A stretch of DNA of 64,000 nucleotides from an uncultured virus (IMG/VR IMGVR_UViG_3300022700_000186) (Duplodnaviria > Heunggongvirae > Uroviricota > Caudoviricetes): the IMG/VR virus record IMGVR_UViG_3300022700_000186. One strand, written 5' to 3'. The translations under genes and the position numbers were made by a program. This document shows positions 33,223 through 52,570 of the stretch, one piece after another; positions within the stretch are counted from its first letter, which is position 1; each line of letters opens with the position of its first letter. Below the pieces are notes generated by a model. It ran no database searches. It worked only from the letters and a program-made list of their open reading frames with translations, and had not been told where the DNA came from.

Positions 33223-33234
33223 GAGGAAAATTTT

Positions 33235-35068: not shown

Positions 35069-35073
35069 TTATT

Positions 35074-37049: not shown

Positions 37050-37301
37050 GTGAAAGCTGAATTTGGCTTTATCGACCCTGGAGCAATAATGGGTGTAGTA
37101 GTATCCCTAATTATTCTCGCTGTCGGTGTATTCGCATTTTTCGTTACTATTAGCGAAATTCCAACAAGCGACGCAACGACAACAGAAGCTGTCAATAACG
37201 TAGCTTCCACAGGTAACTCAGTGTTCAATATCATTGGTATTGTTCTGATTATCGGTGCGATTATGTCTATTGTGGGTCTAGTCTACAACTATGTACGATA
37301 A
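37050..37301 (+). CDS. Putative major capsid protein, spindle-shaped virus type
   Basis: 83 aa, two hydrophobic helices with a polar S/T/N linker as in SSV1 VP1/His1 MCP; own promoter, strong SD, 3' hairpins. Confidence 0.72.
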   Translation: MKAEFGFIDPGAIMGVVVSLIILAVGVFAFFVTISEIPTSDATTTEAVNNVASTGNSVFNIIGIVLIIGAIMSIVGLVYNYVR

Positions 37302-37304
37302 TGA

Positions 37305-37346
37305 TGCCTAATTAGGCAGAATGAGGTATAGAGTTCCTATACCTCA
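37305..37346 (+). terminator. Hairpins after the MCP gene (terminator/stabiliser)
   Basis: Palindrome tgcctaattaggca; tgaggtatag-agttc-ctatacctca. Confidence 0.55.
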
Positions 37347-37544
37347 CCCCTTATATTTATTTAAAAAACTATGGAGGAAGACATAAGTGAGAACTGTTTT
37401 TGAATTATTACATTATTATTATTTTCCGTTTTATCAGATTTATTTGTCTATTTACTCAATACTAAGTGGTAGAAAAAAGGTGGTTTGTTGTAAAGGAGGG
37501 GTATGTCTTCCTCCCTTCTCCTTTACAAAAAGGATGTTATGATT

Positions 37545-38987
37545 ATGGAAAAAATTAGAGAAAAACCAAGAAAGAAAAACATAGGAATAAAGACTAAACC
37601 ATTGAGACTTGGAAAACCAACAAACCTATTTGGTGGAAGAGGGAAAAAACCATCCTGGTTTAACGATAAAGTTTGGGGAACAGAAAATCCAAGAGTTGTC
37701 ACAAAAGAAGGTGAAAGAAGAGGTCCACCAACAATTGGTAGAACAATGAATGTATCAAAAAAAGTAGATTTGTTTGGTGGAAGAGGAAGGAGACCATCTT
37801 GGTTTAATGATAATATTTGGACACAAAGTAGAGATTCAGATTTTGATGGTGTACCAGATAGCAAAGATTGCAATCCAAGAAACCCTTGGTTACAAGATGA
37901 AGATAAAGGTAGAGTGAACTTTGAACCAGCAACCAGAGTTCCAACAGGAGAAAACTTTGAAGAAGCAACTGGAGATGAACAGTTTGATGAAGGTATGGAA
38001 GATAGTAATAATCTTCCTGTTATATATGAACCACAAAACGTAGAAGAAGTACAACAACAATCAATTCAAAACGTAGGAGAAACAGGATTACAAGAACAAA
38101 AAGAAATCATATCATACGATGATATAGAGCCAGCAGATAGTGAACCAGAAATGAAATTTGTTGGTGGTGATTCTGTATCTCAAGAACCTACTAAACCAGA
38201 TTTTATTGATAATGATGACGTTGAGCTTTCAGAAAATGAACCCATGTGGTATCTATACTACAGATTAGAAGATGGTAAATGGTACCTTGATGACGCTTAT
38301 GAAGAAAGTGAACTTCAAGCTGCATTTCAAAGATTAGATAACTACCCAGGAATTGTTGAAACTCGAGTATCAAAAGAAGATATTTTAAAACAACTGAACA
38401 GACAACTTGGATTAAAAAATGTTGGAGATACATTATCAAAAGCAGCTAGCAAAGTCGGTGATTATACAGAAAGACAGCAATTTAAAGGAAACTTACAGCA
38501 ACAATTACAAGGAGCAAAACAGAACTATCAAAGACCTCAAAGAAGAAGACCTCAAAGAATACCTCAAAGAACAAGAAGACCGAGTGTACCGACGCAATCA
38601 ATGATTAGAACGCGACAACCAACGCAACAACCGAACATTAATATCTATCAACAAGAAAGAGTATTACCACCGAATGGGAACGGTGTTGGAAGGGTTCAAC
38701 AGTACTCTCCAGTTACCGCTCAACAATCAACTGTACCACGAGTTACAAGACAATATCAACCATTTGGTGCAAATAACCAATATCAAAATCCAAATTATGA
38801 CATGGGTGTTAAAAGAAAATTTACACCAGGAATACATAAACCTAATCCTATGAGCATTAATTTATCAAATACAAGCTCTGGTACAGGTTTAGGAAAAAGA
38901 AGAGAAGGTTCTCCTGTTACAAGACCGAAGTTTATGATTCCGATGGGAGATATAAAATTCCTTCGTTTTGGGAGAAGATTAGAATGA
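37545..38987 (+). CDS. Low-complexity protein with two W-tag repeats and a D-rich tag
   Basis: LFGGRGxxPSWFNDxxW x2; RDSDFDGVPDSKDCNPRNPWLQD; upstream IR ttgtaaaggag/ctcctttacaa. Confidence 0.7.
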   Translation: MEKIREKPRKKNIGIKTKPLRLGKPTNLFGGRGKKPSWFNDKVWGTENPRVVTKEGERRGPPTIGRTMNVSKKVDLFGGRGRRPSWFNDNIWTQSRDSDFDGVPDSKDCNPRNPWLQDEDKGRVNFEPATRVPTGENFEEATGDEQFDEGMEDSNNLPVIYEPQNVEEVQQQSIQNVGETGLQEQKEIISYDDIEPADSEPEMKFVGGDSVSQEPTKPDFIDNDDVELSENEPMWYLYYRLEDGKWYLDDAYEESELQAAFQRLDNYPGIVETRVSKEDILKQLNRQLGLKNVGDTLSKAASKVGDYTERQQFKGNLQQQLQGAKQNYQRPQRRRPQRIPQRTRRPSVPTQSMIRTRQPTQQPNINIYQQERVLPPNGNGVGRVQQYSPVTAQQSTVPRVTRQYQPFGANNQYQNPNYDMGVKRKFTPGIHKPNPMSINLSNTSSGTGLGKRREGSPVTRPKFMIPMGDIKFLRFGRRLE

Positions 38988-39304
38988 AGAAAAGTGAGTT
39001 TAGATTAAGTAGTAAAGAAGCAGAAAAAGGAATTTTCAAACTAAAGAAAGACATTCCTGTAGCTGCAAATTGGATACGAGAAAAAGTGGCAAAAAAACAA
39101 TTAGACACAGAATCTAAACCATTAGGTTTTCCTGATACAAAGTACTTCGACGGACATAAATACACGTTCTACGGAATGGTGAGTGACAAGGCAAAAGCTC
39201 GTGAACTTTCCAATAAGGTAAGAAAAACTGGTAGGTATGCACGAATTGAGCCAATGTTTAACAATAAATGGATTGTCTGGAAAGGTACTTGGTATAAGAA
39301 ATAA
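38984..39304 (+). CDS. Basic protein
   Basis: KAKARELSNKVRKTGRYARI. Confidence 0.65.
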   Translation: MKKSEFRLSSKEAEKGIFKLKKDIPVAANWIREKVAKKQLDTESKPLGFPDTKYFDGHKYTFYGMVSDKAKARELSNKVRKTGRYARIEPMFNNKWIVWKGTWYKK

Positions 39305-39318
39305 AAGGAGGTGAAAAA

Positions 39319-39465
39319 ATGGCAGAACATGGACCGTTTAAAAACAAAGAAAACGCAAGAAAATTCGCAACTAAAATGCGAAAGAAAGGGTTTAACGCAA
39401 CTCTCTATCAAGCAAAGGGTACAACCCCTAGAAAGCAATGGAAAGTAAGCGTAACAAGAAATTAA
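39319..39465 (+). CDS. 48-aa basic SPOR-like microprotein
   Basis: MAEHGPFKNKENARKFATKMRKKGFNA..WKVSV; SD GGAGGTGA. Confidence 0.7.
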   Translation: MAEHGPFKNKENARKFATKMRKKGFNATLYQAKGTTPRKQWKVSVTRN

Positions 39466-39469
39466 GGAG

Positions 39470-40381
39470 ATGAATAAAATGAAAAGAAAAGCTAGGTTTG
39501 GTTTCATGGACCCAAAGGTGATAATGTCAGTAGTGGTATCGCTCATTATACTTGTAGTGGGTGTACTTGCTGTGGCAACGGTGACAACCCAAACAGATGA
39601 TTTCTCGGAAACAGTGAATATCGAAACATCAACAGAAAGTTACAATGAAAGGTACGTTGACGATGACAATGATACGAATCCAAGTCAAGATTGGTATTCA
39701 TATTATGAATCTGGACTTCCTTACGCAAATGTAACGAATCTGACAACAGAAAACAGCTTCCGTATGAACACAACAGTCGGTTCTGATACAACAGGAGGAG
39801 TTATGTATAACTTCACCACAGCAGATGATTATGAAACAATTGAAACTGTTGTACGAATCAATGCTTCGTTGCACAATCATACAATTGTAACGATTGGTTC
39901 TTGGATTTCTCCATTAGGAACAGATGGTGCTATTGCATATTGGGAAATCAACACGTCATACATAGCGTTCTTTGTGCTAACAACAGGAACAGATGTATAC
40001 ACTGAAGTTTGGAATAATACCATTGATAATATGACATGGTATCAACTTACAGCAACACTTGATTACGACACCTACAATATCAACGGTAAACTCTATAATG
40101 TATCTTCATCAACTACTATGAACAACAGTGGAGCAACTTGTGTTTACGAGTTTACTAATGTAACACAATCATTCTGGGCTATTAACGAAGCTAACGGTGA
40201 TGATAGTTGTCATATCTGGTTCAACTCGTTCACGTTAACCGACACTGATAGAACAAGTGGAGAAGCACCAGTTGATGTTATGGCAACAGCAAACAGTGTT
40301 TTCGGTATCATAGGTATTGTTTTGATAGTATCCGCTATCATGGCGATAATCGGACTGATGTATCCATACCTTCGGTCGTAA
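39470..40381 (+). CDS. MCP paralog with an inserted glycosylated beta domain (minor capsid/spike)
   Basis: FGFMDP..VVVSLIIL.VGV and NSVFGIIGIVLI match the 37050 termini. Confidence 0.75.
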   Translation: MNKMKRKARFGFMDPKVIMSVVVSLIILVVGVLAVATVTTQTDDFSETVNIETSTESYNERYVDDDNDTNPSQDWYSYYESGLPYANVTNLTTENSFRMNTTVGSDTTGGVMYNFTTADDYETIETVVRINASLHNHTIVTIGSWISPLGTDGAIAYWEINTSYIAFFVLTTGTDVYTEVWNNTIDNMTWYQLTATLDYDTYNINGKLYNVSSSTTMNNSGATCVYEFTNVTQSFWAINEANGDDSCHIWFNSFTLTDTDRTSGEAPVDVMATANSVFGIIGIVLIVSAIMAIIGLMYPYLRS

Positions 40382-40511
40382 TGAGACCTAAAAAACGGAA
40401 TTAGTTGAATCAGAATTTTTTCTGATTCTTCTTCATATTCCAAACAAAACAAAGATGATAATATGATATTTGGATTAATTGAAGATGAATTCTTAAGTTC
40501 AATCAAAGGAG

Positions 40512-40757
40512 TTGGTCAAATTGAATGCAAGTAGTATTGGCAGTTCAGTTGGTAGTATATTAGGCTGGGGAATCGGTTTAGGATTACTTGCTCATACAGC
40601 TAAGAATGTAGCAAGAACAACAGATGAAATGTATCAACCTGCTCGAAACAAAGTTAGGATGAAAAGGAGAGGTAATGTAAGAACCAGACATCGAATGCAC
40701 AGAACAACCAGAATGAAAACTAACCAACCTAGATTGAACATACCAAATTACTGGTGA
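40512..40757 (+). CDS. Protein with Gly-rich hydrophobic N-terminus and Arg-rich tail
   Basis: ORF track. Confidence 0.6.
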   Translation: MVKLNASSIGSSVGSILGWGIGLGLLAHTAKNVARTTDEMYQPARNKVRMKRRGNVRTRHRMHRTTRMKTNQPRLNIPNYW

Positions 40758-40763
40758 TATTAA

Positions 40764-41045
40764 ATGTACAAAACAAGAGTACCTAAAGACTTGCATAGAT
40801 TGAAAGTAGACGAAGTGAAACCTTTCTATGTTGTGGAATATCCAACAAGGGATGCGCAACTTATTGATATTTTATTTGAGTGTGACCCGCTGGGTTTAAT
40901 GCTCCAACATCAAGGTGGATTAGAAATAAATCATGTCGCTGGATTTTTCACAAACAAGGCAAGAGCAAAGAAATTTGCTGAAAAACTGCTAAAAGAAAAG
41001 TTCGCAGGAAAAAGAAAATATGAATATAAATTCCCAAAATGGTGA
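40764..41045 (+). CDS. Hypothetical protein
   Basis: GGTGA SD; FFTNKARAKKFA. Confidence 0.65.
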   Translation: MYKTRVPKDLHRLKVDEVKPFYVVEYPTRDAQLIDILFECDPLGLMLQHQGGLEINHVAGFFTNKARAKKFAEKLLKEKFAGKRKYEYKFPKW

Positions 41046-41051
41046 TTAAAA

Positions 41052-41234
41052 ATGGTAGGACCAGATATGTTACATAAAGGATGGGGTTATTACAAAAACA
41101 AGAAAAGTCTTGAAAAAACAAAAAAAGCGATTAAGATAGGAAGAAAATTTGGTGGATTTAAAGGTCAGAGATTGAAAGTGCTTAAATCTGATGATTCAGA
41201 TTATAAGTATCGTGTAAGAATGGTGGAAAGATGA
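41052..41234 (+). CDS. Small basic protein
   Basis: GGTGA SD. Confidence 0.55.
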   Translation: MVGPDMLHKGWGYYKNKKSLEKTKKAIKIGRKFGGFKGQRLKVLKSDDSDYKYRVRMVER

Positions 41235-41650
41235 ATTGGAAAGATGATGTATGGGGAGTAAGTAAATCCTTTAAACTTGGAACTGGTGAAATAGAAAAAG
41301 GAAAAAGTAAAAAAATATACTTTGAGTTTTCGTTAAAAATGAAACCAGAATGGTTTACTTGGCACCCTAACGCAAAAGACAAATTTGTAGAACATTTTCA
41401 AAAAAATCATGCTTCAGATACATATCAAGGAAACATTGATTTTAATGTTTATGCAACAGATTGGGACAGAAAAGGTGTATTTGGTGAGGGAACGTTTGTT
41501 ATTCCAGCTTCTTATGTAGAAGATATCAAAACGAAATCAGATTACAAAGAAGTAGCTATGGATGCATTATCAAGTATCATGTCTTTTGATTTAAGTTCAC
41601 AAGAAAGATATATGATTGAAGATTATAAAGTTGATAACATTACAACATAA
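41231..41650 (+). CDS. Hypothetical protein with N-terminal W-tag
   Basis: MNWKDDVWGV. Confidence 0.7.
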   Translation: MNWKDDVWGVSKSFKLGTGEIEKGKSKKIYFEFSLKMKPEWFTWHPNAKDKFVEHFQKNHASDTYQGNIDFNVYATDWDRKGVFGEGTFVIPASYVEDIKTKSDYKEVAMDALSSIMSFDLSSQERYMIEDYKVDNITT

Positions 41651-41665
41651 TAAGGAGGTATGAAA

Positions 41666-41743
41666 ATGGCAAAAAAAAGAAAGTACTACTATCGAAAAGT
41701 AAATGGAAAAAGAAAACGCTGTAAAATGCCAAAGAGACGTTAG
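41666..41743 (+). CDS. 25-aa protamine-like microprotein
   Basis: MAKKRKYYYRKVNGKRKRCKMPKRR; SD AAGGAGGT. Confidence 0.55.
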   Translation: MAKKRKYYYRKVNGKRKRCKMPKRR

Positions 41744-41879
41744 TATGGGAAAGGTTATTTATCCTAAAAAAAGAGCATTCAAAGGTCGCGTTAAAGTAAT
41801 TGATGTTGAACCAGTGAAATTCAAACTTTCCTGCGGTGATAAATTCATACATGTTGGAAGTACAGATTATATAAGGTGA

Positions 41880-42158
41880 ATGATGATGAGCGAATTACCA
41901 ATTGAAAGAAGATACAAACCAGAAAAATACAAAGGTAGATTGGTAAGATTTAAAAAATATGTCAATCCACCACATCTTGGTTTGAAAAAACCTGTTATTG
42001 CATATTGGAAAGATAAAGAACCAGTCTTTAATTTTTATGGTACAAGTAATCATTTTGATGGTTTTAAAAAAGTTGATTTGCATAGGGCAGGAAGAACAAA
42101 ATCAGAAGCATTTAAAGAAGCAAAGAAAGAAATTAATATATTATCAAGATGGGAATAA
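41880..42158 (+). CDS. Basic hypothetical protein
   Basis: GRTKSEAFKEAKK. Confidence 0.6.
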   Translation: MMMSELPIERRYKPEKYKGRLVRFKKYVNPPHLGLKKPVIAYWKDKEPVFNFYGTSNHFDGFKKVDLHRAGRTKSEAFKEAKKEINILSRWE

Positions 42159-42159
42159 A

Positions 42160-42234
42160 ATGAGAAGAAGAAAACCTAAAAGAAGTAGCAGAATAAGAAC
42201 TCCTAAGTGGAAAAGAATAAAGATGAAAAGGTGA
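42160..42234 (+). CDS. 24-aa protamine-like microprotein
   Basis: MRRRKPKRSSRIRTPKWKRIKMKR. Confidence 0.45.
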   Translation: MRRRKPKRSSRIRTPKWKRIKMKR

Positions 42235-42238
42235 AAAA

Positions 42239-42388
42239 ATGGCATATGCACTTTATAGGAAAGGAGAAAAAGCAAAAAATTATAAAAAAATAGCTGTCTT
42301 CAAACGGAAACGTGATGCAAAGGAATTTGCAATATCCGAGATACCATTGAAAGATAACTATCGAATTCGAAAAGTTAAGGATTTATAA
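42239..42388 (+). CDS. 49-aa basic microprotein
   Basis: AVFKRKRDAKEFA; GGTGA SD. Confidence 0.6.
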   Translation: MAYALYRKGEKAKNYKKIAVFKRKRDAKEFAISEIPLKDNYRIRKVKDL

Positions 42389-42392
42389 TTTT

Positions 42393-42782
42393 ATGAAATT
42401 AAGTAAGGTAAAAGGTTATTTTTATCATCAGACCAACAGCTGGTCAGCAAAGAACATAATGGAAGAAGGGTTCTTTGTTGAAAGTGGTGGAAATCAACGT
42501 TTTACCGAGGGAATTTATTTACTTTCACACCCCGAAGGTGACTTTGGGGATACAACATTAAAGGTTCTTGTTAAAGGTAAATTTATTGATTTATCGGATG
42601 ATTTATACGGTAATGATTGGGTTGATTTCAAAAGACAATATTGGAAAGGTAACTATACAGATTTAACCGAAGATATCAAAAAAGATTACCCGAAAGCTGA
42701 TGGTATACTATTCAATGGAATGTTAGTTGTTTGGTACCCAAATAAGATAAAAGAAATACAGTATCATAAGAGATTGTTGTAA
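42393..42782 (+). CDS. ADP-ribosyltransferase-fold protein (ART 2)
   Basis: FYHQT..AKNIMEEGF..GIYL..DGI..LVVW. Confidence 0.65.
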   Translation: MKLSKVKGYFYHQTNSWSAKNIMEEGFFVESGGNQRFTEGIYLLSHPEGDFGDTTLKVLVKGKFIDLSDDLYGNDWVDFKRQYWKGNYTDLTEDIKKDYPKADGILFNGMLVVWYPNKIKEIQYHKRLL

Positions 42783-42791
42783 ATTAGAGGT

Positions 42792-43340
42792 ATGTTTATG
42801 AATTGGAAAGATGACTATTGGAGTAAAAAAAGAAGAAAAAGAATTACTTCTTTCAAACCAATTAATATACATTTTAACTTAGACACCGACAGAGATGGTG
42901 TTCCTGATTGGAAGGATTGTCAACCATTCAACCCTTTGAGACAAGACAAAAGAGTTCTTGATATAGGAGCAGGTTCAAGTCCAAATACATATGCGACACA
43001 TGCAATAGACCTCAGAGAACCAGAAATGAACTTTCCAGACATTGAATATAAATGGGGATATGATTTTAACAAAGAAACAACAAATTTACCATACCCATCA
43101 AATTATTTCGATATGGTTATAAGTACAGGAGGACTTGCAAGAAACTTTGAATCAAAAAATATTTTCAAAGAGATATTTCGAGTTCTTGTTCCTGGTGGTG
43201 TTTTAAAATTTAATGGAGATGTTATTTTTAAAGAAGCAAAAATTAGTCTTGAAAAATTTGGTTTTAGAACTGTGGAAGAAGAAGATATTTATGAACCTTA
43301 TTTAAACGAGTATGTTACATATATTGTTGCTTATAAATAG
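42792..43340 (+). CDS. Class I SAM-dependent methyltransferase with W-tag and D-rich tag
   Basis: VLDIGAG, LPYPSNYFDMV, EIFRVLVPGG. Confidence 0.85.
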   Translation: MFMNWKDDYWSKKRRKRITSFKPINIHFNLDTDRDGVPDWKDCQPFNPLRQDKRVLDIGAGSSPNTYATHAIDLREPEMNFPDIEYKWGYDFNKETTNLPYPSNYFDMVISTGGLARNFESKNIFKEIFRVLVPGGVLKFNGDVIFKEAKISLEKFGFRTVEEEDIYEPYLNEYVTYIVAYK

Positions 43341-43351
43341 GAGATAATAAT

Positions 43352-43777
43352 ATGAAATTTCCAGATTATTGGGGAGTAGGAAAAAACAGGACACATTTCA
43401 ACTTAGACACCGACAGAGATGGTGTACGAGATTTTGTAGATTGTAAACCTTTTAATCGGAGAAGACAAGGACATATAGAATTTGAAACGATGAATTCTTT
43501 ATACAGACTTATCTATGCGACACCAGAAGAATACCAACATTTACCAGTAGATGCAGAACCAGAATTTGTTCTTCAGAAGTTGGAAGGTGAAGGTCGTTTA
43601 GGAACAGTTGCATCAGCTCCCGAATCAGACCCTCCCTATATAAGTAGAGGTGTGTTAACTATGCCAGGATATCATACATCACTATTAGCAGACCCAGATT
43701 ATGTACAATCATTTCTGGATTCTTGTTGGAGCAGACCACCATCTGTTCAAGATAATTATAGGGTAGAAAGGATATGA
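43352..43777 (+). CDS. Hypothetical protein with W-tag and D-rich tag
   Basis: MKFPDYWGV..HFNLDTDRDGVRDFVDCKPFN. Confidence 0.7.
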   Translation: MKFPDYWGVGKNRTHFNLDTDRDGVRDFVDCKPFNRRRQGHIEFETMNSLYRLIYATPEEYQHLPVDAEPEFVLQKLEGEGRLGTVASAPESDPPYISRGVLTMPGYHTSLLADPDYVQSFLDSCWSRPPSVQDNYRVERI

Positions 43778-44214
43778 AATACTGGTATGTAAAAGAAGCA
43801 CAAGACATTAAAGTTCCTGTAAAAAATATAGGAGATTATGTATATCATTCAACATTAAAAACAAATTTCATTAGTATATCAAATGACATGATTTTATACC
43901 CTTCAGAAAAAACAAATTGGGGTGGTTCTTTAGGTGATAAATCAATAGGTAAGATATACTTTTCGAGAACAAAAAATGGTGCTGAATATTATGGAAACAT
44001 GCTTGAAGATACATTAACTTTAAAGATACCAGTAAATAATTTAAAAAATGCTTTCTATGATAAAGAATCAAAAAGTTATTTGTCAAAGGAAGATATTTAC
44101 ACAACAAAACCTGTCAGTTTAAAAAACTCATTTGTTTGGAATGGTGAAGAATGGAGAAAACTAAACAAAGATATGTGTGAAGCAATCGGATATGGTGAAT
44201 GGAATGAATATTAA
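43774..44214 (+). CDS. ADP-ribosyltransferase-fold protein (ART 3)
   Basis: VYHST..NFISI..KIYFS..AEYY..LKIP. Confidence 0.6.
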   Translation: MKYWYVKEAQDIKVPVKNIGDYVYHSTLKTNFISISNDMILYPSEKTNWGGSLGDKSIGKIYFSRTKNGAEYYGNMLEDTLTLKIPVNNLKNAFYDKESKSYLSKEDIYTTKPVSLKNSFVWNGEEWRKLNKDMCEAIGYGEWNEY

Positions 44215-44611
44215 CTGGACACTTGCATATGATAATCCGAGGTGGTGCAAAACAGTTTACATGTCACCATCTAAGTTCTTATCGTTAGCAATTCCCACAC
44301 CAAGCTATGATATGGGTAGTATTCAACACTTAAGTGGTACGAATGATTGGTCAACTCCTTATCTACGAGTTGATATAGATACAGGTAGAGTATTAGAACA
44401 TGAGGGAAGACATCGATGTCATATTTTGGAGCAAAAAGGTGTAAAGAAAATACCAGTTCAGTTATGCTTCTACAAACGAGAAGATGAACCATCGATGATG
44501 TGGGGAGTAGAAAAAAGAAGATTAAGACCGATTGATGCTATTAATTATCCAATTAGTAAATGTAATATTAAAGTAAGTCAACTAAAACCAGAACAACCTC
44601 ATAATTGGTGA
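44204..44611 (+). CDS. ParB/Srx-like domain protein
   Basis: MSPSKFL..PYL..EHEGRHR..GVKKIPV. Confidence 0.7.
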   Translation: MNINWTLAYDNPRWCKTVYMSPSKFLSLAIPTPSYDMGSIQHLSGTNDWSTPYLRVDIDTGRVLEHEGRHRCHILEQKGVKKIPVQLCFYKREDEPSMMWGVEKRRLRPIDAINYPISKCNIKVSQLKPEQPHNW

Positions 44612-44615
44612 AAAG

Positions 44616-45173
44616 ATGAAATGGAAAAAGAATAATGTTTGGAAAGTAAAACCTATTAAAATGAGATTTAACTTAGACACCGACAGAGATGGTGTTCCTG
44701 ATTGGAAGGATTGTCGACCTTTTGATTATTGGAGACAGCACGTAGACCCAGGAGATTGGTTAGATACTGAAGAACCTAAACCAACTTTGTTTAATGGAGA
44801 ATGGATGTCTACTAATAGGTATAAACGGAAGCCAAAAATATATAAACCTACAAGAGAGAATATAATTAGAAATGCTGAAAAAAGATATGAAGAAAAAGGA
44901 GAATATATGGATGACCTTGCTCTGTACATAGCACAAGTATATTTGGCTTCTTTATTAGGTATAAAGGATAGATTTACCAAAGAACTTCTTTCAAGAGCAG
45001 AAATATCTTATTATAATGAAGAAATTCTCGAATTGTTTGATAAAGATACAGGAGTGCATCATTTCGTTTATGTTGGTGATACTCAGAGTAATTTCCCATC
45101 ACTAATGTTATCAATAACAAGCGAAGATATGCGTACTTATGGAAGACGTAATGCTATTTCATTAATGCAATAG
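44616..45173 (+). CDS. Hypothetical protein with W-tag and D-rich tag
   Basis: MKWKKNNVWKV..RFNLDTDRDGVPDWKDCRPF. Confidence 0.7.
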   Translation: MKWKKNNVWKVKPIKMRFNLDTDRDGVPDWKDCRPFDYWRQHVDPGDWLDTEEPKPTLFNGEWMSTNRYKRKPKIYKPTRENIIRNAEKRYEEKGEYMDDLALYIAQVYLASLLGIKDRFTKELLSRAEISYYNEEILELFDKDTGVHHFVYVGDTQSNFPSLMLSITSEDMRTYGRRNAISLMQ

Positions 45174-45833: not shown

Positions 45834-46046
45834 ATGAAAGAAATTTACAAATCTGGAAAGATGGTTCGGTACGAAACTGATAAAGGCAACAAAGTTGAGG
45901 TATACAAAGAACGGATTGGAGGTAAAACGTTTTGGTTTGTCGGGTTTGTTACAAAGGACAAAATCATCAATGCCAACAAAGATTTTGATTACAAAAAAGA
46001 TGCTATTGCATACGCAAAAAAAGTAGTTAAGAAGAAAGGGTGGTGA
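45834..46046 (+). CDS. Small basic protein
   Basis: FDYKKDAIAYAKK. Confidence 0.6.
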   Translation: MKEIYKSGKMVRYETDKGNKVEVYKERIGGKTFWFVGFVTKDKIINANKDFDYKKDAIAYAKKVVKKKGW

Positions 46047-46062
46047 ATGAGGGAGATTCAAA

Positions 46063-46275
46063 ATGTATGAAATAAGTGTTGGACCAAAGGGTAAACGCAT
46101 CACAGTGGAAACATGTGATACAAAAGCAGAAGCCAACAAAATCTTACGAGAATTAAAAAAACAAAGGAAATCAAAATTTAACTATAATCCCCGAATCAAA
46201 AAAGTATCAACAGAAAGAGAAAAGGAAATAAGAAAGCGAATAAAACAACTTATTGAAAGAACAAAATCCCGATGA
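46063..46275 (+). CDS. Small basic protein
   Basis: CDTKAEANKIL. Confidence 0.6.
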   Translation: MYEISVGPKGKRITVETCDTKAEANKILRELKKQRKSKFNYNPRIKKVSTEREKEIRKRIKQLIERTKSR

Positions 46276-46385
46276 TTTATGGAAAGATTGATTTATGGAA
46301 AGATTGGGGAGTAGACTATCGAAATTATGGTTTTGTACCTAATGATGTTACAGATAGAGCAGAATTCTTAAAAAAATGTGATTGA
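46272..46385 (+). CDS. 37-aa microprotein containing WKDWGV
   Basis: Manual translation; overlaps a 16-bp tandem duplication. Confidence 0.4.
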   Translation: MIYGKIDLWKDWGVDYRNYGFVPNDVTDRAEFLKKCD

Positions 46386-46386
46386 T

Positions 46387-46950
46387 ATGCAAATTCGAAA
46401 TCCAAAAAAGAGTGAAATGAAAGAACTGAAAAAGTTAATGTTAAAGTATGGTGATGTTCCTTCGGAAGAGGCGGTTGCAGCTACAAAAGAAAGCAAACGA
46501 AAACAATGGTTAGTAGTAGTATCAAAAGGTAGGATTTTGGGAGCAGGAAGAACGTTCAAGACAGATTGGTATGAATGGACTTTGAAGAATGCTTTTGTTG
46601 TACCTGCATCGCGTGGTTTAGGAATAGCAAGTATTCTTTATGAAAAATTAACAGACAAAGCAAAAGCAGAAGGAGCAAAAGTTTGTGAAGCAGATATCAC
46701 TGCAACAAATATTCCTTCAAAGATAGCTGCAACCCGAGCTGGTATGCTACCAGTAAACAGTTTCAAATGGGATAAAGACGAAACTCATGCAGATATTTAT
46801 CAAGAGGTCTTCACACCACCGACTAGGAATGAAGTATTAAAGATAAATACACATATTGATTCGCAATTCATGTTAAGAAAAAAGAAAGCACCAGTAGGTG
46901 TTCACTCACCTTTTTCAGTAACAAAGAAGCGAAGAAGAAAGTTAAAATAA
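46387..46950 (+). CDS. GNAT acetyltransferase
   Basis: MQIRN.., FVVPASRGLGIASIL (motif A), NIPS..GM. Confidence 0.85.
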   Translation: MQIRNPKKSEMKELKKLMLKYGDVPSEEAVAATKESKRKQWLVVVSKGRILGAGRTFKTDWYEWTLKNAFVVPASRGLGIASILYEKLTDKAKAEGAKVCEADITATNIPSKIAATRAGMLPVNSFKWDKDETHADIYQEVFTPPTRNEVLKINTHIDSQFMLRKKKAPVGVHSPFSVTKKRRRKLK

Positions 46951-47237
46951 ACATTGCAAGTAGTATATTATATCTTATAGAACTTTTTTATCTTCTTCTT
47001 TTTATCCGTTTTTTTACTAATTGTATAACTACCTATTTTTGTTAATCATCAATGTGGTATAGATATTATAAGATTATACAGTTTGTTATATACGAGCATA
47101 CTATGTAAGATACTACTTTTATGTATATCAATCGTCCCTTGTTTGGGGAAACGTTTCGTTTTCCCCCTATAACGAGAAGTGCAAAGGTGTCCTTAAATCT
47201 TCCAAACATATAAATACTAAGACTGGCATATATAGAT

Positions 47238-47267
47238 TGTATAATGGTTACATAATAACATTATACA
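47238..47267. promoter_or_regulatory. Inverted-repeat operator upstream of the RHH gene
   Basis: tgtataatg-N12-cattataca just downstream of TATA atataaata (~47208). Confidence 0.6.
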
Positions 47268-47282
47268 GTTAGGTGGTGAGTA

Positions 47283-47609
47283 ATGAGCAATAATGATGGA
47301 AAACAAATTTCAATTGTTATTCCAAAAGAAATGTATAAATGGTTAGACGAACATCGAAATATCAACCGTAGTGAACTTTTTAGACAATCTGTGCAATCTT
47401 TGATGACTGACGAAAAACAAAAAGTTGACCCGCTTTTATTCTTGGCATCAGTTATGGGAATTGTATTCTCAATTGCGTTGATAGGGATTGCAATAACTCC
47501 GACACCAATTCATGTAATCACTCGTGGTTTACTTGCTTTACTTGGTGGTGTTCTTGCGTTAGCAACTTCTTACATGTACTTTAAGGAAGTAAACAACAAA
47601 GCAAGATAA
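47283..47609 (+). CDS. Ribbon-helix-helix protein with two C-terminal TMs
   Basis: QISIVIPKEMYKWLD..INRSELFRQ plus hydrophobic hairpin. Confidence 0.75.
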   Translation: MSNNDGKQISIVIPKEMYKWLDEHRNINRSELFRQSVQSLMTDEKQKVDPLLFLASVMGIVFSIALIGIAITPTPIHVITRGLLALLGGVLALATSYMYFKEVNNKAR

Positions 47610-47638
47610 ACACAGAAAATTTAGGAGTGAATTGTTAA

Positions 47639-48073
47639 GTGCAATACAGACCAGATTTAGAAACAGATACAGCTTTAACTGTAACACAGTTTATGCTGTC
47701 ACCAGATATTCCACCAACAGAAAGAAGACATTTTGAAAAGTTTTATTTAATGTTTTCAAAGATTATGGCATTAGGTAACATTCGTAGAGAGGATGTTTTT
47801 GCTATAATGATTGCTTTTGAAGAAATCTGTATGTTATTAGAAATGGGATTATATAATGAAGCAAGGCAAATGATGGGCAAGGAACTGATGAAGATTCAGG
47901 TATCACGTTCAGTTGACGGTTTCCAAATCTTATACGGTCAATCTGGTATACAGAAAACAGAACATATCGAAAGAGTTATGGCAAGACGAAGAAACAAATC
48001 TTGGACACAACGAGTAACAGGAGCTTTCGGTAAAGGAAACAAAAATGAAGGTAATTGGGAGCAGATAAGATGA
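47639..48073 (+). CDS. Helical hypothetical protein (assembly module)
   Basis: ORF track. Confidence 0.65.
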   Translation: MQYRPDLETDTALTVTQFMLSPDIPPTERRHFEKFYLMFSKIMALGNIRREDVFAIMIAFEEICMLLEMGLYNEARQMMGKELMKIQVSRSVDGFQILYGQSGIQKTEHIERVMARRRNKSWTQRVTGAFGKGNKNEGNWEQIR

Positions 48074-48651
48074 GCATAGTTTTTTCATTAAGCTACATAC
48101 TCGTAGCATTTGGTATTCTTATTAACGGTTTGATTGTTATGTTACCTGCTCATATGCAAGCGTTAATTCCTGCATGGATGAGACTTGCATTTATGGGTGT
48201 TGGTTTGATGCTTGGAGTATTCGGTGTTTGTTTACCACACACCAGAGCAAAGAAAACAGGAGCAGAACATTTAATCGACTTTGCAAGACCAAGTACGTTA
48301 ATTTGGTTTTATGTTTACCGTGATGGAACAGTAAAAATCACACCAGCTGTTCGTGAAGTTGAAGGACAACTTTATTCGAAAGATTTAGATGCACAAATAC
48401 ATGATTTAAAATCATACCGACTTTTCGACCATTCAATCAGATTTGTACCCGAAGGAATTGGACATGCTGTTGATTTAGATGTAGTTCTATACACAACGCT
48501 ATTACGAAACAAATATGGTTTTACGAATATCAAAGAAGCAAGGGAAGCTGGATTTAAAGGTTTGATAAACCCACCGAAAGAACAAACCAGTGACGAAAAG
48601 GTAGGGGTACCAGACGAAGAAGGCAATATCAAAACATTTAGTGAGGATTAA
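48070..48651 (+). CDS. Two-TM membrane protein with soluble C-terminal domain
   Basis: Hydrophobic N-terminus. Confidence 0.7.
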   Translation: MSIVFSLSYILVAFGILINGLIVMLPAHMQALIPAWMRLAFMGVGLMLGVFGVCLPHTRAKKTGAEHLIDFARPSTLIWFYVYRDGTVKITPAVREVEGQLYSKDLDAQIHDLKSYRLFDHSIRFVPEGIGHAVDLDVVLYTTLLRNKYGFTNIKEAREAGFKGLINPPKEQTSDEKVGVPDEEGNIKTFSED

Positions 48652-48653
48652 TC

Positions 48654-49292
48654 ATGGGACGTATGAATAAAAGAACAAAGAAATTTACACAAGATGAGGT
48701 TTACGAACCAGAGGAGTTCACACAAGAAGAATACTATCAACCACAACAAGAACAGCAGGAATACTATCAACCAGAAACCTACCCACAACAAGTTCCCGAG
48801 CAAATACAACCAAATCCACAACAGGTTATTCAGGAACAACTTAGACAAGCACAAATGCAAAGACAACAAATACCTCAACAACAACAGCCTCCACCAAGAT
48901 TCACAAATGAAGAAAGTCCATATCCAGCACAATACGACGATGAAGATGATGAAGAAAGCAATGTTGGAGGACCACTTTCTATTCTCGATGAAATCAAAAG
49001 GAAACCAACACCGAAAGGTGTATTCACACAACGCATAGGTGGAAGACCTGTTGATTTACACGTTCTTGAAGATTATATTACTAAAATCAGTCCTTTTGCT
49101 TTGAAAACCCTTCTACGTTATCACAACGCTAAAACAATGGAGGAAATCAAAAGTTACAGTCAGGGTAGCAAACTCAACATCAACGGTGGAACAATAATAC
49201 TCATTTTAGCCGCTGTTGGAATGGCAATTCTCGGACTCGTTATGGTATTCTTCATGCCCGACATTATGAACATGTTTAAAAGTGGTATCTGA
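48654..49292 (+). CDS. Q/P/E-rich protein with C-terminal TM
   Basis: QEEYYQP-type repeats; hydrophobic tail. Confidence 0.7.
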   Translation: MGRMNKRTKKFTQDEVYEPEEFTQEEYYQPQQEQQEYYQPETYPQQVPEQIQPNPQQVIQEQLRQAQMQRQQIPQQQQPPPRFTNEESPYPAQYDDEDDEESNVGGPLSILDEIKRKPTPKGVFTQRIGGRPVDLHVLEDYITKISPFALKTLLRYHNAKTMEEIKSYSQGSKLNINGGTIILILAAVGMAILGLVMVFFMPDIMNMFKSGI

Positions 49293-49445
49293 TGGGATTA
49301 AAAGAACGCATTAAAAAAATAAAAGAAGAACTTGCTTTCCAAAAAGAACAATCTAAAGTTATTCTAAAATCAAAATGGGATGTCGGTGCCGAGCAAGGTA
49401 AAAAACTAAAAGAACAACACAAAGAAAAAATAAAGAGGAAGAAAA

Positions 49446-50003
49446 ATGAGAGGTAAAGGAAAAGGTAGTTTTGCACTGTTAGTTACAGCACTTATCATTT
49501 TACTGGTCGCGTACGGAATATTCATGAGTATAACGCACTCAATTGATGGCACAAACAGTTACAACAATCTAACAGCATCAACTACAAACACCGTTTATGG
49601 AATAGTACCACTATTCCTTGTAATCGGAGCTATAGTAGCATTCATAGGCATGTGCAGCTTTTACACATCAAACACAGAACGTTTTCGTAGAATCAACGCA
49701 AGATTCAGATGGATTCTGGATTTTCTTGACGCAGCGACTTATTATTTTGCTTACGGATTATTTGCTTACGCTATTTTTGGAACAGTCGGAGGAGGAGCTT
49801 ATCTATCATACCGAATTTTCACAATGCCAGGAGCTGGTGGTGTATCTCTTGAAGTCGGTAAATGGATACTGATTATCTTAGCATTCTTCTTCACGACAGC
49901 AATTGTTGGTTATCTATTCGAAAGATACCCATGGCGAAAATGGAAAGAACGCAAACGTGAATCTCAAGCAATTAAAGAATTACCACAGGTTGGGATAGAG
50001 TGA
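49446..50003 (+). CDS. MCP-like hairpin fused to additional TMs
   Basis: LVTALIILLVAYGIF..NNLT..TVYGIVPLFLVIGAIV resembles the MCP hairpin. Confidence 0.6.
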   Translation: MRGKGKGSFALLVTALIILLVAYGIFMSITHSIDGTNSYNNLTASTTNTVYGIVPLFLVIGAIVAFIGMCSFYTSNTERFRRINARFRWILDFLDAATYYFAYGLFAYAIFGTVGGGAYLSYRIFTMPGAGGVSLEVGKWILIILAFFFTTAIVGYLFERYPWRKWKERKRESQAIKELPQVGIE

Positions 50004-50115
50004 CCACTGATGAAAAACTTGAGAAAGCAATAGAAACAGACCCAAAACGATACGTTGCATATCGAAACAAAGACAAATCACTAAACAAGGTCATGGATAC
50101 CGCCACAGGTAGATT

Positions 50116-50430
50116 ATGGCTAAAAGTACAAAACCAATTAACAAAAGAATCAAAATGGAGTTGGATAGAATGAAACAAGTCTATGAAATAACAGGTACCC
50201 GAAGAATTGGAGAAAAAGTAAATCTTCGTATCAAAGAACACAAAGCAGTTAAAGAAAAACCATCAACACAGGATATGGTAAGTAACGCACTCGGTTTTGT
50301 TGAACAAATGAAACTTGATGCTATCAACACTAACAATCCAGAAATGATTTCCATACCATACGATGAATGGAAAGGTTACAAATGGAATATCGGAGACCTT
50401 ATATCAATCACCGTTGAACCATATGAATAA
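50116..50430 (+). CDS. Hypothetical protein
   Basis: ORF track. Confidence 0.6.
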   Translation: MAKSTKPINKRIKMELDRMKQVYEITGTRRIGEKVNLRIKEHKAVKEKPSTQDMVSNALGFVEQMKLDAINTNNPEMISIPYDEWKGYKWNIGDLISITVEPYE

Positions 50431-50586
50431 ACTACATCACATACCAGGAGTATTAGGTATCGCATCTCTCATCTTCCACACCTACCTCTTCTTAGAAACA
50501 GGTTGGAGATTAGACACCGTTTCCTTTCTTCTGGTTGGATTAGTATTATCATTCCTTCAGATAGGTATTTATGGAAGGTGTAAAAA

Positions 50587-50997
50587 ATGAAAACATTTGA
50601 TGAATTAACCGAAAAAGAAAAAGAAAGGCAGTTGTGTTACGAAACAAGTAGAAGCAGATTAGAGAATATCATAAACAGTGATATTGTAACTCTATTCATT
50701 TTTCTTGCTATTCTCATGACTATGGTATTTGTCATATTTGGTTATGGTGTAACAACTGTAGTAACTGCCGAAACAGATTCTCTTTTTAATCTAGGTATAA
50801 CCATGCTTCAAGCATCAATCTTAACAGGAATTGTAGGAACAATGTTTTTTGTAATCCTGTTTGCTGTCATAATCTACAAAAGAGAACAGTTTAGAAAGCA
50901 ATTATTTGCTATCTATGAAATGGATGAAAACATACACAACGTATCAAGAAAAGACTTAAGAAAAATCAAAAGAACTTGGAAAAAGGAGGATAATTAA
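50587..50997 (+). CDS. Two-TM membrane protein
   Basis: Hydrophobicity pattern. Confidence 0.65.
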   Translation: MKTFDELTEKEKERQLCYETSRSRLENIINSDIVTLFIFLAILMTMVFVIFGYGVTTVVTAETDSLFNLGITMLQASILTGIVGTMFFVILFAVIIYKREQFRKQLFAIYEMDENIHNVSRKDLRKIKRTWKKEDN

Positions 50998-51584
50998 TGG
51001 TACTCGCAAAAGAACAAGAAGGAAAAATTAGAGGCGCAACCGCCGAAGAATTTATTTGGCATAAGGTAAACTACCTTCAGGAAGCACGTGAATCTGGAGA
51101 TGGAGCAATATTCGATGAAGTAATGAACTCGGTCGAAAAACTATTCCGAGCTTTCCCAAAAGCACACCAGGAACTAATGGCAATCAAACAACAACTTGAT
51201 GCCGTCTACTTCCGAGAAAAAGAAAACATCATCCGTGAAGCTGACCGCTCCCGAGATGTTATCAACCGACAGAACTACATTGAAAACGAATCAAACGATT
51301 TAGATTGGGAATACCGTAACATGTACGAGGAAGCAATCATTGATGTTATGCAAAAACAAAATCTCATACCAATGAGCAGACCACACTATACCGAAATGCA
51401 ATCAACCCATGAAAGTCAAATGAACAGTCAACCAAAACCACAACCACAAGTAAAACCCCAGCCACAACCCCAGCAACAACCTCAACCTCAATATCAACCA
51501 CAATACACTGAAGGAGAAAAGATAGAACCGCAGCCAAAGAAAAAGAAGAAAAAACCAAAACTATCAATCCGTCGTAAGAAATAA
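50997..51584 (+). CDS. Coiled-coil protein with PQ-rich and basic tail
   Basis: ORF track. Confidence 0.65.
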   Translation: MVLAKEQEGKIRGATAEEFIWHKVNYLQEARESGDGAIFDEVMNSVEKLFRAFPKAHQELMAIKQQLDAVYFREKENIIREADRSRDVINRQNYIENESNDLDWEYRNMYEEAIIDVMQKQNLIPMSRPHYTEMQSTHESQMNSQPKPQPQVKPQPQPQQQPQPQYQPQYTEGEKIEPQPKKKKKKPKLSIRRKK

Positions 51585-51586
51585 TT

Positions 51587-52570
51587 ATGGCATCAAAACC
51601 AGAAATTCTCGGTCAAGAAATCCTCGAGCAATTGCTAGCTCAAACTGATGAATACGGTGGAGCATTCGTATACATAACAGGTGCAATGGGAGGTGGAAAG
51701 ACATCAGCCATGCTCTCTTGGTTAGTCTACCACCTAAAACATCACCCAGACCAAAAAATCTTCTTCAGTGAAACCTACGATGCACCTCTACAAACTTTCA
51801 AGGTAGGATTAGATTACATACACTTTATGATAAAAGAAGGAGCAGGTGTTGAATTCCGAGACAGAAATCAAAAACTCAAAGATGTAACAAAAGATTGGAA
51901 ACCCACCTACTTCACAACCTATGCCGACCTTTACGAGAAAGCAAAACCAGGAATGGTTAACACCGTATTTTTTGGAAACAGAACAAAATGGATGGATTTT
52001 ATCGCATACATGCGCCACACCACTGCTTGGGACCACATTTTCATTGATGAAATCGGTGAAGTCATTCCTTCCAACACCAGCGGAAAACTCCACAAACGTA
52101 TCGGACAATTCGCAATCTTTGCTAAAGATATCCGTAAGTGCCGAATGAAAGTAATCGCCAACACCCAATCTGTACGTGATATGGATTGGCGAGTTATCGA
52201 CAAATTCATGTACCGTGTATTTCTCCCAGGTGCAATGGCAGATAGAAAACACTCCCGAGTTACCCAGAAAGCAATCGACAACCTTCAAGGTGATATGAAC
52301 CACGGCAACGATGCTTACATCGACCGTTTAGGTAAATTCGGTAAAATATCATTCCTTGACATCTTCGTACCCAATCACGGAATAAGTATAGAAGCTCATA
52401 ACAGCAATCTTGAAGAATACACAGCAATCAACGAGGAGAACGATGAAGAAATGACCAGACAGCAACGATACCACGCTCGGCAAAAGAAAGCAAAAGAACA
52501 GGGAAAAACCGACGACGAAGAAGACAGCATTCTTGCAAAAGCTGAAAAACAAACACTAAGTGGAACATGA
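51587..52570 (+). CDS. P-loop ATPase, probable morphogenesis/genome-extrusion ATPase (FtsK-HerA/Zot-like)
   Basis: Walker A GAMGGGKT, Walker B IFIDE, RK..IANTQ..D sensor. Confidence 0.85.
   Translation: MASKPEILGQEILEQLLAQTDEYGGAFVYITGAMGGGKTSAMLSWLVYHLKHHPDQKIFFSETYDAPLQTFKVGLDYIHFMIKEGAGVEFRDRNQKLKDVTKDWKPTYFTTYADLYEKAKPGMVNTVFFGNRTKWMDFIAYMRHTTAWDHIFIDEIGEVIPSNTSGKLHKRIGQFAIFAKDIRKCRMKVIANTQSVRDMDWRVIDKFMYRVFLPGAMADRKHSRVTQKAIDNLQGDMNHGNDAYIDRLGKFGKISFLDIFVPNHGISIEAHNSNLEEYTAINEENDEEMTRQQRYHARQKKAKEQGKTDDEEDSILAKAEKQTLSGT

Follow-up and report, generated by a model that had tools for sequence, protein, structure and literature searches.

A coat protein in the form of a hydrophobic alpha-helical hairpin is a feature of spindle-shaped viruses, according to the available portions of two reports (PMC9351363, PMC12934983). 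In SSV19, the first of these describes VP1 as a protein of 84 aa with two helices and a short outer loop between them. A conserved P-loop ATPase, termed AAA+, has been found alongside the spindle major capsid protein (bioRxiv 2025.02.15.638363). The families proposed for PAV1 and TPV1 share a core gene set that includes two ConA-lectin proteins (accessible text of PMC12934983). Two coat genes have been reported for the Itzamnaviridae (PMC9894754, available portion) and the Eurekaviridae, and the largest genome given there for the Itzamnaviridae and the candidate Tepeuviridae is 72.6 kb (PMC9894754).

In the present study, we analyzed a 64-kb stretch of DNA (hereafter, the window) from a 77-kb contig of an uncultured virus. 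We give a probability of about 0.7 to the reading that it represents most of the genome of a spindle-type archaeal dsDNA virus, whose family is undescribed and known from genes alone. Most likely, it carries the particle-building gene block of a family related to the lemon-shaped viruses, and the lineage is probably a new, large one, whose particles would be spindle-shaped. The first-pass annotation had proposed a large, non-tailed, archaeal, spindle-type virus of an undescribed lineage, and that part stands, through the ATPase link to PAV1 ORF375 and, weakly, through TPV1 gp15; the link does not extend to SSV1, His1 or SMV1, whose coat proteins score at the level of pattern-keeping shuffles. 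The features are listed in Table 1.

Table 1. Features of the window, with the evidence for each
Feature	Coordinates	Strand	Evidence
Four tandem tRNA genes: Leu(TAA), Leu(TAG), Ser(GCT), Ser(TGA)	962..1358	+	ARAGORN, Rfam
Two small two-helix membrane proteins, start of morphogenesis block	17331..17904	+	Homologues: 3/81 and 6/81 loci; also the 26.7-kb circle
Large surface proteins 17913, 20941 and 24419, with 4-TM protein 23880	17913..25693	+	Pfam, hydropathy
Small basic conserved protein	25704..25991	+	46/81 loci; directly upstream of the hairpin gene in relatives
Block of secreted or membrane-anchored proteins	26194..36579	+	26194 in 21/81 loci, 35074 in 35/81
Core gene next to the hairpin gene, encoding a multi-TM protein of 93 aa	36580..36861	+	47/81 loci
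Signals upstream of the hairpin gene: TATA-like box, 36985-36992; Shine-Dalgarno site, 37037-37043	36985..37043	+	Read from sequence; conserved upstream of homologues
83-aa hydrophobic helical hairpin, candidate major capsid protein	37050..37301	+	Fold model, homologues, profile searches
Two RNA hairpins 3' of the hairpin-gene stop codon	~37305-37318 and ~37322-37346	+	Folding z = -3.3
303-aa paralogue, both hairpin helices and a ~220-aa loop insert	39470..40381	+	Profile E 5.5e-23
Conserved operon that precedes the ATPase gene: 47283, 47639, 48055, 48654, 49446, 50997	47283..51584	+	Same order in related loci L073, L085, L086
P-loop ATPase, PAV1 ORF375 homologue, FtsK/HerA-A32-like fold	51587..52570	+	Profile match, fold search, alignment
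Conserved 156-aa protein after the ATPase in relatives	52739..53209	+	L073; similar ORFs behind the ATPase in L085, L086
ATP-dependent DNA ligase	59026..59820	+	E 1.7e-20

The hairpin protein and its gene

The hairpin ORF starts with GTG. In the AlphaFold2 model (mean pLDDT 89), residues 10-35 and 42-82 form two helices, both hydrophobic, as the first-pass annotation had read from the letters, and the model agrees with the description of SSV19 VP1 in the available part of PMC9351363. Homologous clusters number 671, at least two full copies of the hairpin occur in 53 of 81 loci, and an alignment of 57 sequences has 34 invariant columns. The loop carries N-x-S/T in 115 of the 120 top homologues; the site is absent from the window's own protein.

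The promoter and ribosome-binding signals noticed earlier are conserved. The TATA-like box is TTTATAAA and the Shine-Dalgarno site is GGAGGTG. Among 68 distinct upstream regions of homologues, 34 have a TATA-like box 45-85 nt upstream (shuffles: mean 5.8, maximum 13, n = 200) and 61 have a Shine-Dalgarno-like word. The 3' RNA hairpins also held up, since 0 of 200 shuffles were equally stable; a terminator scan did not list them. Two paralogues in the window had been overlooked: the 303-aa protein, a candidate decorated minor capsid protein, and the N-terminal start of 49446 (E 2.9e-8).

We searched 641 ORFs of five spindle viruses with the hairpin family profile. TPV1 gp15 was the top match, a weak one (E 0.002, 13.6 bits), and its score was reached by 0 of 1000 full shuffles and 1 of 1000 pattern-keeping shuffles. 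We take gp15 to be the TPV1 coat protein; a literature search did not bear this out, and the record annotation is just 'membrane protein'. In the case of His1 ORF21, SSV1 VP1/VP3, PAV1 ORF121 and two SMV1 virion proteins, 232-1000 of 1000 pattern-keeping shuffles scored equally high (244 for His1 ORF21). No proven spindle coat protein gave a significant sequence or fold match to the hairpin. Searches of PDB, Pfam and PHROGs returned generic membrane matches only, and fold searches were non-discriminating. The nearest named ESM Atlas clusters, VP1_VP3 (0.88; 29% of its members carry the family) and His1_capsid (0.84), are leads only. We infer from the fold, the conservation and the gene context that the protein is the capsid protein.

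An exclusive match to cellular pilins or membrane proteins, which the first-pass annotation had named as counting against its reading, was not seen: two exact peptide patterns did not find the hairpin in the 185,579 species genomes of the GTDB collection. On a rival reading, the window comes from an extrachromosomal element, such as a large archaeal plasmid; the hairpin would then be a pilin-like component of a filament for transfer, and the ATPase would drive conjugation or partition. Ahead of G-F, the protein has a short, basic N-terminus that ends in G before F-I/V-D-P in 90 of 120 homologues, and Pilin_N is touched by 10 of 74 members (best E 1.2e-5). A class III signal has a basic residue (K/R), then G/A, then the cleavage site, and archaeal type IV pilins have a single N-terminal helix. 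However, at the second position ahead of the putative cleavage site, 120 of the 120 top homologues have F/Y, followed by G/N/S, and not K/R, and the protein ends in a second hydrophobic helix. We therefore rejected an archaeal type IV pilin.

The ATPase operon and other genes of the window

The first-pass annotation had placed a P-loop ATPase in a membrane-protein operon, and our analysis agrees. G35/K38 of Walker A, D154 of Walker B and T193-Q194 are invariant in 46 of 46 aligned sequences. The ATPase matched PAV1 ORF375 (99.4%, E 5e-21, 259 columns), and both belong to phrog_22963. SSV1 B251 and His1 ORF16 aligned weakly (11.6% and 2%); TPV1 gp20 (E 2.7) and SMV1 ORF307 (E 1.6), also ATPases, did not match. 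The fold resembles FtsK/HerA-type packaging motors, with STIV2 B204, Zot and the PH1 ATPase as top matches and HerA and the TcpA coupling protein among the others. The ATPase is a candidate packaging or extrusion motor. In L073, the hairpin and the ATPase operon are linked. Through its relation to ORF375, a type of ATPase recorded so far on plasmids and in small viruses becomes tied to a conserved operon of membrane-protein genes.

The Zot/pI proteins of inoviruses among the top folds would suit a non-tailed virus with the same kind of hairpin and another shape, either bacilliform or rod-like (APBV1-like) or an enveloped or extruded filament with a Zot-like extrusion motor. Hydrophobic hairpin coats are common to bacilliform and spindle viruses (available text of PMC12934983 and PMC9351363), and paralogues with bulky loop inserts are unusual. 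Nevertheless, the specific sequence relatives, PAV1 and TPV1, are spindle viruses, and a simple rod holding 180 kb would presumably be very long. Another shape is thus unlikely.

The plasmid reading also draws on the ATPase, with HerA and TcpA among its fold matches and ORF375-type homologues on pTN2-type plasmids and in the plasmid-like half of PAV1 (PMC3543421). Against it, neither relaxase nor VirB4 families were matched in the window (Pfam, PHROGs), and several features are typical of a virus, namely the dense arrays of small ORFs, the tRNAs, dUTPase and RusA. Together with the pilin evidence, this makes a plasmid rather improbable.

The 91 ORFs of the window were searched against Pfam (E<=0.01) and PHROGs (E<=0.001), and 39 of them against NCBIfam. 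As the first-pass annotation had stated, no terminase, portal or HK97 family was found in these searches; the ATPase touched Terminase_6N at E 0.042, short of the cut-off. The window could still belong to a head-tailed archaeal virus whose structural genes lie in the 13 kb of the contig outside it, the membrane block being accessory, and in the ESM Atlas its neighbours bear the label Uroviricota, which rests on very few members. However, 13 kb would leave little room for a head-tail module, a closed 19.3-kb circle without a terminase match carries the same block, and in one relative (G001) the DNA downstream of the shared PIN gene contains replication genes. We regard a head-tailed virus as very improbable.

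Protein 17913 is a beta-helix protein (Pfam NosD/Beta_helix). In both surface proteins 20941-23883 and 24419-25693, the C-terminal part contains three hydrophobic segments, in line with the multi-TM anchoring proposed earlier, and homologues of the two occur in 17 and 20 of the 81 loci, respectively; the surface proteins of 17913-25693 are candidate adhesins or tail-end parts. The block at 26194-36579 includes a 1607-aa protein with TSP3 repeats, two sets of paralogues (31074/32677 and 31641/33235/34232) and 35074.

The tRNA genes expected from the earlier reading were found, three by ARAGORN and the fourth by Rfam. The Leu(TAA) gene has an intron-like insert of 47 nt in the anticodon loop, after position 37 (1000-1046). 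By eye, it has a bulge-helix-bulge-like arrangement with three of four central pairs; the MFE fold did not recover this. Judged from the conserved TATA-like box, the intron-like 37/38 insert of this tRNA, and AglB and MCM in a relative, the host is archaeal. The ligase of the proposed Ku-ligase pair was recovered; for the supposed Ku (58064-58849), searches of Pfam, PHROGs, NCBIfam, PDB sequences and phage records gave no match. The so-called 'effector arrays' consist of small ORFs in series, and no replicative polymerase was identified in the 64-kb window.

Relatives, genome size and a model of the particle

Three markers, namely the hairpin, the ATPase and a divergent MCM, were each found again on contigs of 135-183 kb that agree exactly in length, and we read their linkage from these matching lengths. 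We infer that these long contigs are whole viral genomes; some members' genomes then appear to be two to three times that of the largest described lemon-shaped virus found. A 44.7-kb virus record of a relative has MCM-like, AglB/STT3, ThyX, helicase and nuclease genes.

The particle-building block is also present on circles of 19.3 kb and 26.7 kb. A second assembly reads across the junction of the 19.3-kb circle, and a 19,456-bp record, which has a terminal repeat of 127 bp, contains the whole block. Terminase_6N had no match in this record or in the two related virus records searched, and the ORF375-type ATPase is absent from the ~19.5-kb circle. The family is abundant in public metagenomes. 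IMG/VR holds one locus per marker; therefore, standard virus finders seem to miss the family.

In the proposed model, the hairpin, expressed from its own promoter, would insert in the host membrane and polymerize laterally; the resulting multi-start helical strands would enclose the genome, in the manner of SSV19 VP1. Particles of the spindle morphotype are lemon-shaped, with seven helical strands. The size of the shell would change by strand sliding; therefore, one protein family could wrap genomes of 19 kb and 180 kb. The paralogues 39470 (loop insert) and 49446 (C-terminal extension) may join as minor or decorated subunits, and the attachment end would be built of large membrane-anchored proteins. 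The ATPase, as a putative motor, and its membrane-protein operon would feed DNA into the particle at the membrane.

Tentatively, and at somewhat less than even odds, we suggest a wider picture of widespread giant spindle-type archaeal viruses of ~100-230 kb that encode an MCM and tRNAs of their own and, in one member or more, an oligosaccharyltransferase for N-glycosylation. Their shells would be decorated by insert-bearing hairpin subunits, and the 19-27-kb circles, which have an 80%-identical coat and in one case lack the ATPase, would be reduced forms or satellites. If so, one coat family would span a roughly tenfold range of genome size. The long contigs would test whether a sliding helical shell scales with genome size, and near-identical coats on 19-kb circles and contigs of more than 100 kb allow direct comparison.

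Comparison with described spindle-shaped viruses

Fuselloviridae (SSV1, SSV19) and Halspiviridae (His1) resemble the window in the small hydrophobic hairpin, the P-loop ATPase and the membrane proteins. They differ in the ATPase family (phrog_5484 versus phrog_22963), the lack of a significant coat sequence link and genomes of 14.5-15.5 kb. Membership in the Fuselloviridae was rejected on VP1/VP3 (PF06281), which do not rise above shuffles, on the B251 value and on a contig of at least 64 kb versus a small genome. Halspiviridae (capsid PF25665, protein-primed PolB, linear genome of ~14.5 kb) were rejected on ORF21 and ORF16, with no PolB family in the window. Bicaudavirus genomes are ~60-76 kb; SMV1, the only member compared, did not fit either (best ORF versus the hairpin profile, E 0.3; ORF307 as above).

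Among the viruses compared, the Thermococcales spindle viruses PAV1 and TPV1 show the best links to the window, ahead of SSV1, His1 and SMV1. PAV1 (proposed 'Osirisviridae', EF071488) has a clear homologue of the ATPase and, like the window, many membrane proteins and large anchored surface proteins. Unlike the window, it has an 18-kb genome, and the hairpin family had no match in ORF121, its structural protein. None of the PAV1 genes tested other than ORF375 matched a window protein better than E 0.02, and ORF676/678 gave no match. In TPV1 (proposed 'Sethviridae', JQ010983; 21.6 kb), gp15 is followed by a small multi-TM gene, and the MCM aligns with the divergent MCM of the window's relatives (95.5%). 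Membership in either family was rejected, as just the ATPase (PAV1) and, weakly, gp15 (TPV1) match; the two lectin genes of TPV1 were outside the test set.

The Itzamnaviridae and the candidate Tepeuviridae, spindle viruses of ANME-1, were compared by description. According to the available text of PMC9894754, they carry two coat genes, and small circles with the structural arm only occur beside larger genomes with replication and metabolic genes, including ThyX. The contigs here are 135-183 kb with all three markers, and would more than double the spindle-virus maximum given in that text.

Gene content of the window

Judged from its genes, the element probably functions as spindle-shaped viruses do. 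Nearly all long ORFs in the window are on the plus strand, and the G+C content is about 34%. We searched 91 ORFs against Pfam and PHROGs, and 39 of those against NCBIfam. The families named by Pfam and PHROGs included dUTPase, RusA, a beta-helix protein, TSP3 repeats, methyltransferase, GNAT, DHH phosphoesterase, and ATP-dependent ligase. These two libraries found no terminase, portal, HK97, tail, or polymerase family among the 91 ORFs, in agreement with the first-pass annotation, which had described the window as lacking terminase, portal, and HK97 genes; NCBIfam added no structural family for the 39 ORFs. The contig recorded for the 37050 protein measures 77,211 bp, which leaves about 13 kb beyond the window. 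A Ku gene had been proposed to pair with the ligase gene; the adjoining protein looks Ku-like by eye, and no library confirmed it.

A soluble 247-aa protein that borders the morphogenesis block had no family match and is kept in five of the 81 loci that carry relatives, as well as in the virus record G001. In two regions of the window and in the loci L085 and L094, many small ORFs start or end with one short tryptophan-rich peptide motif, and several ORFs of these arrays start with a second common motif. The motifs suggest possible cassette-like gene arrays on a repeated DNA element. Around the ATPase gene, the GC skew becomes negative, and C-ending codons peak in this gene and its two neighbours; this segment may have been acquired separately or may be expressed differently.

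Coordinates of the features in the window and in loci of relatives
Sequence	Coordinates	Feature
Window	962-1097	tRNA-Leu(TAA)
Window	10330-16172	small-ORF array
Window	16576-17319	247-aa soluble protein
Window	37050-37301	hairpin, candidate major capsid protein
Window	41231-45173	small-ORF array
Window	47283-51584	membrane-protein operon
Window	50001-54000	skew and codon shift
Window	51587-52570	P-loop ATPase
Window	58064-58849	Ku-like reading
L001	4833-10346	apparently split hairpin
L038	8979-9530	peptidyl-tRNA hydrolase
L085	1728-3355	small-ORF array
L086	1547-5611	glycosyltransferase and methyltransferase genes
L093	1-19456	virus record G003
L094	6111-6889	small-ORF array
L095	3615-4400	PCNA-like reading
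L095	6781-10032	AglB/STT3 region

The hairpin protein and known coat proteins

The candidate coat protein, an 83-aa hydrophobic protein (hereafter, the hairpin), was modeled by AlphaFold2 from a 74-row alignment as two helices, at residues 10-35 and 42-82 (pLDDT 89). Its gene had been described as having a TATA box, a strong SD, and 3' hairpins; a TATA-like box, a strong SD, and two stable 3' hairpins are indeed present. Of 68 upstream regions of homologues, 34 have the TATA-like box equally far from the gene (5.8 in shuffles), and 61 have an SD. The codon bias of the gene (9/15 versus 33% overall, rank 4 of 91) is too weak for use.

The family comprises 671 clusters among 681 candidates, or 113 representatives at 50% identity. 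Variation is confined to the loop, and both helices are nearly invariant. The loop contains N-x-S/T in 115 of the 120 top homologues; the window's own copy does not contain it. Many relatives have loop inserts of 20-220 aa or charged C-terminal tails; the window paralogues 39470 and 49446 are of this type. At least two full copies are present in 53 of the 81 loci. In the locus L001, the hairpin looks split: one ORF has the first helix only, and the second helix alone forms the end of two large proteins, of 1160 and 568 aa. In one relative, a peptidyl-tRNA hydrolase gene (TIGR00447, above the cut-off) is inserted just upstream of the hairpin genes.

The sequences link this family weakly to known coat proteins. 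A hairpin profile trimmed to the query columns was compared with 641 six-frame ORFs of His1, SSV1, SMV1, TPV1, and PAV1. The product of the 15th gene of TPV1 (gp15), which we take to be the TPV1 coat protein and which the TPV1 record annotates as a membrane protein, ranked first (E 0.002); His1 ORF21 and SSV1 VP1 ranked fourth and sixth. Against shuffles that preserve the hydrophobic pattern, gp15 alone stood out (1 of 1000 as high). Among proteins of the three viruses that had been named for comparison (SSV1, His1, and SMV1), His1 ORF21 (244 per 1000), SSV1 VP1 (232) and VP3 (812), and two SMV1 virion proteins (370 and 1000) did not rise above these shuffles. In the case of PAV1 ORF121, 984 of 1000 shuffles were as high.

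In the ESM Atlas, unnamed clusters (0.92) were followed by VP1_VP3 (0.88) and His1_capsid (0.84), which are leads only. The family phrog_16261 ('virion structural protein'), matched by 18 of 74 hairpin members (best E 1.6e-6), did not lead to any virus. PDB sequences and phage records gave nothing useful. In BFVD there was no match at E 0.001; AMDV2_8 and an 81-aa Nitrosopumilus spindle-virus protein were at the non-significant ranks 3 and 38. The structures listed by fold searches were helical hairpins of a generic kind (best Z 9.9), with no spindle coat among them, which excludes nothing; a bare hairpin cannot be discriminated by fold search. A report on the fusellovirus SSV19 describes VP1 as a curved hydrophobic hairpin of 84 aa with the loop outside (PMC9351363).

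The ATPase, relatives, and host

The P-loop ATPase at the end of the membrane-protein operon has 48 homologues among 846 candidates. Invariant positions are the Walker A and B residues, R224, and a T-Q pair that follows the Walker B helix. It matched phrog_22963 (E 1.9e-22), which is PAV1 ORF375 (E 8.7e-196), and the direct comparison with ORF375 gave 99.4% (E 5e-21). It does not belong to the family of the SSV1/His1 ATPases. As a single sequence, it matched nothing among PDB sequences and phage records. In the PDB, the model of the ATPase (pLDDT 90) best matched STIV2 B204, Zot, and HerA; in BFVD, its best matches were inovirus Zot proteins and the PH1 ATPase. The ATPase is thus predicted to have the FtsK/HerA-A32 fold, as in DNA-packaging and extrusion motors. 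PMC3543421 places further ORF375 homologues on plasmids of the pTN2 type and in the A3 VLP provirus of Methanococcus voltae; thus, the ATPase alone is no proof of a virus.

In a metagenome scan, 498 pattern matches gave 149 encoding stretches, from which 80 loci were kept; L001 was added to make the 81 loci, two of which are the same DNA. The gene order of the window is kept for 36580 in 47 of the 81 loci, 25704 in 46, 35074 in 35, 26194 in 21, 24419 in 20, and 20941 in 17. The locus L073 has both the hairpin and the ATPase operon. A search of GTDB genomes with two exact peptide patterns gave no hairpin, and the ATPase was found there on one contig (L086). This contig has a 5.2-kb terminal repeat and a unit of 26,657 bp, on which the ATPase operon is accompanied by the membrane block, an integrase, and a hairpin of divergent sequence (E 6e-7). 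On this 26.7-kb circle, glycosyltransferase and methyltransferase genes are located where relatives carry tandem hairpin genes.

IMG/VR gave two related records. G003 (19,456 bp with a 127-bp terminal repeat) is a closed 19.3-kb circle, whose junction is spanned by L036 from a separate assembly. The membrane block is complete on it, and it encodes a serine recombinase and two hairpins (75-80% identity); an ATPase, a Terminase_6N match, and a recognised replication gene were not found in it. It is possibly a reduced form or a satellite. On G001, a 44,655-bp fragment, the genes that come after the ATPase operon encode a 5'-3' exonuclease, helicases of the UvrD and SNF2 types, ERCC4, ThyX, an archaeal AglB/STT3 (E 1e-52, under the cut-off), and a protein from a family that aligns with TPV1 MCM (95.5%). 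In L095, a relative's virus record, the archaeal oligosaccharyltransferase AglB/STT3 is beside a GHMP kinase and ThyX; the searches confirmed neither a PCNA-like reading of one L095 gene nor primase or RPA readings of the genes next to it.

Four features point to an archaeal host: the TATA-like box is conserved, a relative carries AglB and MCM, the element is related to PAV1 and TPV1, and its tRNA-Leu(TAA) has a 47-nt insert. The gene for this tRNA is the fourth in the window and was overlooked by ARAGORN. The insert follows position 37, where archaeal tRNA introns canonically lie; its bulge-helix-bulge was read by eye and was not recovered by folding. Among 301 genomes of the phylum of G002, the GTDB metagenome-assembled genome that includes L086, a strong ATPase match was found in G002 itself only; a second match (E 3e-4) was a fragment of a long ORF. 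We discounted the G002 bin as evidence of a Heimdallarchaeota host because the contig is a closed element that ends in repeats and has no chromosomal sequence on either side. In 13 of 16 sequencing runs the shares were small (at most 0.17); therefore, we claim no habitat. No RNA run carrying the element was listed.

Genome size and placement

The lengths 182,915, 182,603, 135,095, and 40,866 bp returned in separate searches with the hairpin, the ATPase, and MCM; 100,995 and 97,921 bp in the ATPase and MCM searches; and 142,397 bp in the hairpin and MCM searches. The hairpin search alone gave 200,158 bp, and the MCM search alone gave 232,221 bp; the latter gave no match with the length of the window's own contig (77,211 bp). 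The ATPases of the two contigs of about 183 kb are 63% identical, and thus the two contigs represent separate elements that happen to be almost equally long. Assigning the markers to one contig by identical lengths across searches, we infer that the long contigs are large genomes; they may instead be host contigs with an integrated element.

We place the element as a new spindle-type variant with a large genome (probability about 0.7). The first-pass annotation had proposed a large spindle-type virus of a new lineage; a large-genome spindle-type variant remains probable, and sequence kinship to the SSV1, His1, and SMV1 coats is not supported. We found no description of this hairpin/ATPase family in the literature searched, whose coverage left out most subscription papers. 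The element did not qualify as a member of Fuselloviridae or Halspiviridae, as a relative of SMV1, or as a member of the families of PAV1 and TPV1. In PMC9894754, Itzamnaviridae include small circles that carry structural genes only, alongside larger genomes that replicate, and the largest spindle-virus genome reported there has 72.6 kb; the spindle-virus satellites described in bioRxiv 2025.02.15.638363 measure 2.7-9 kb.
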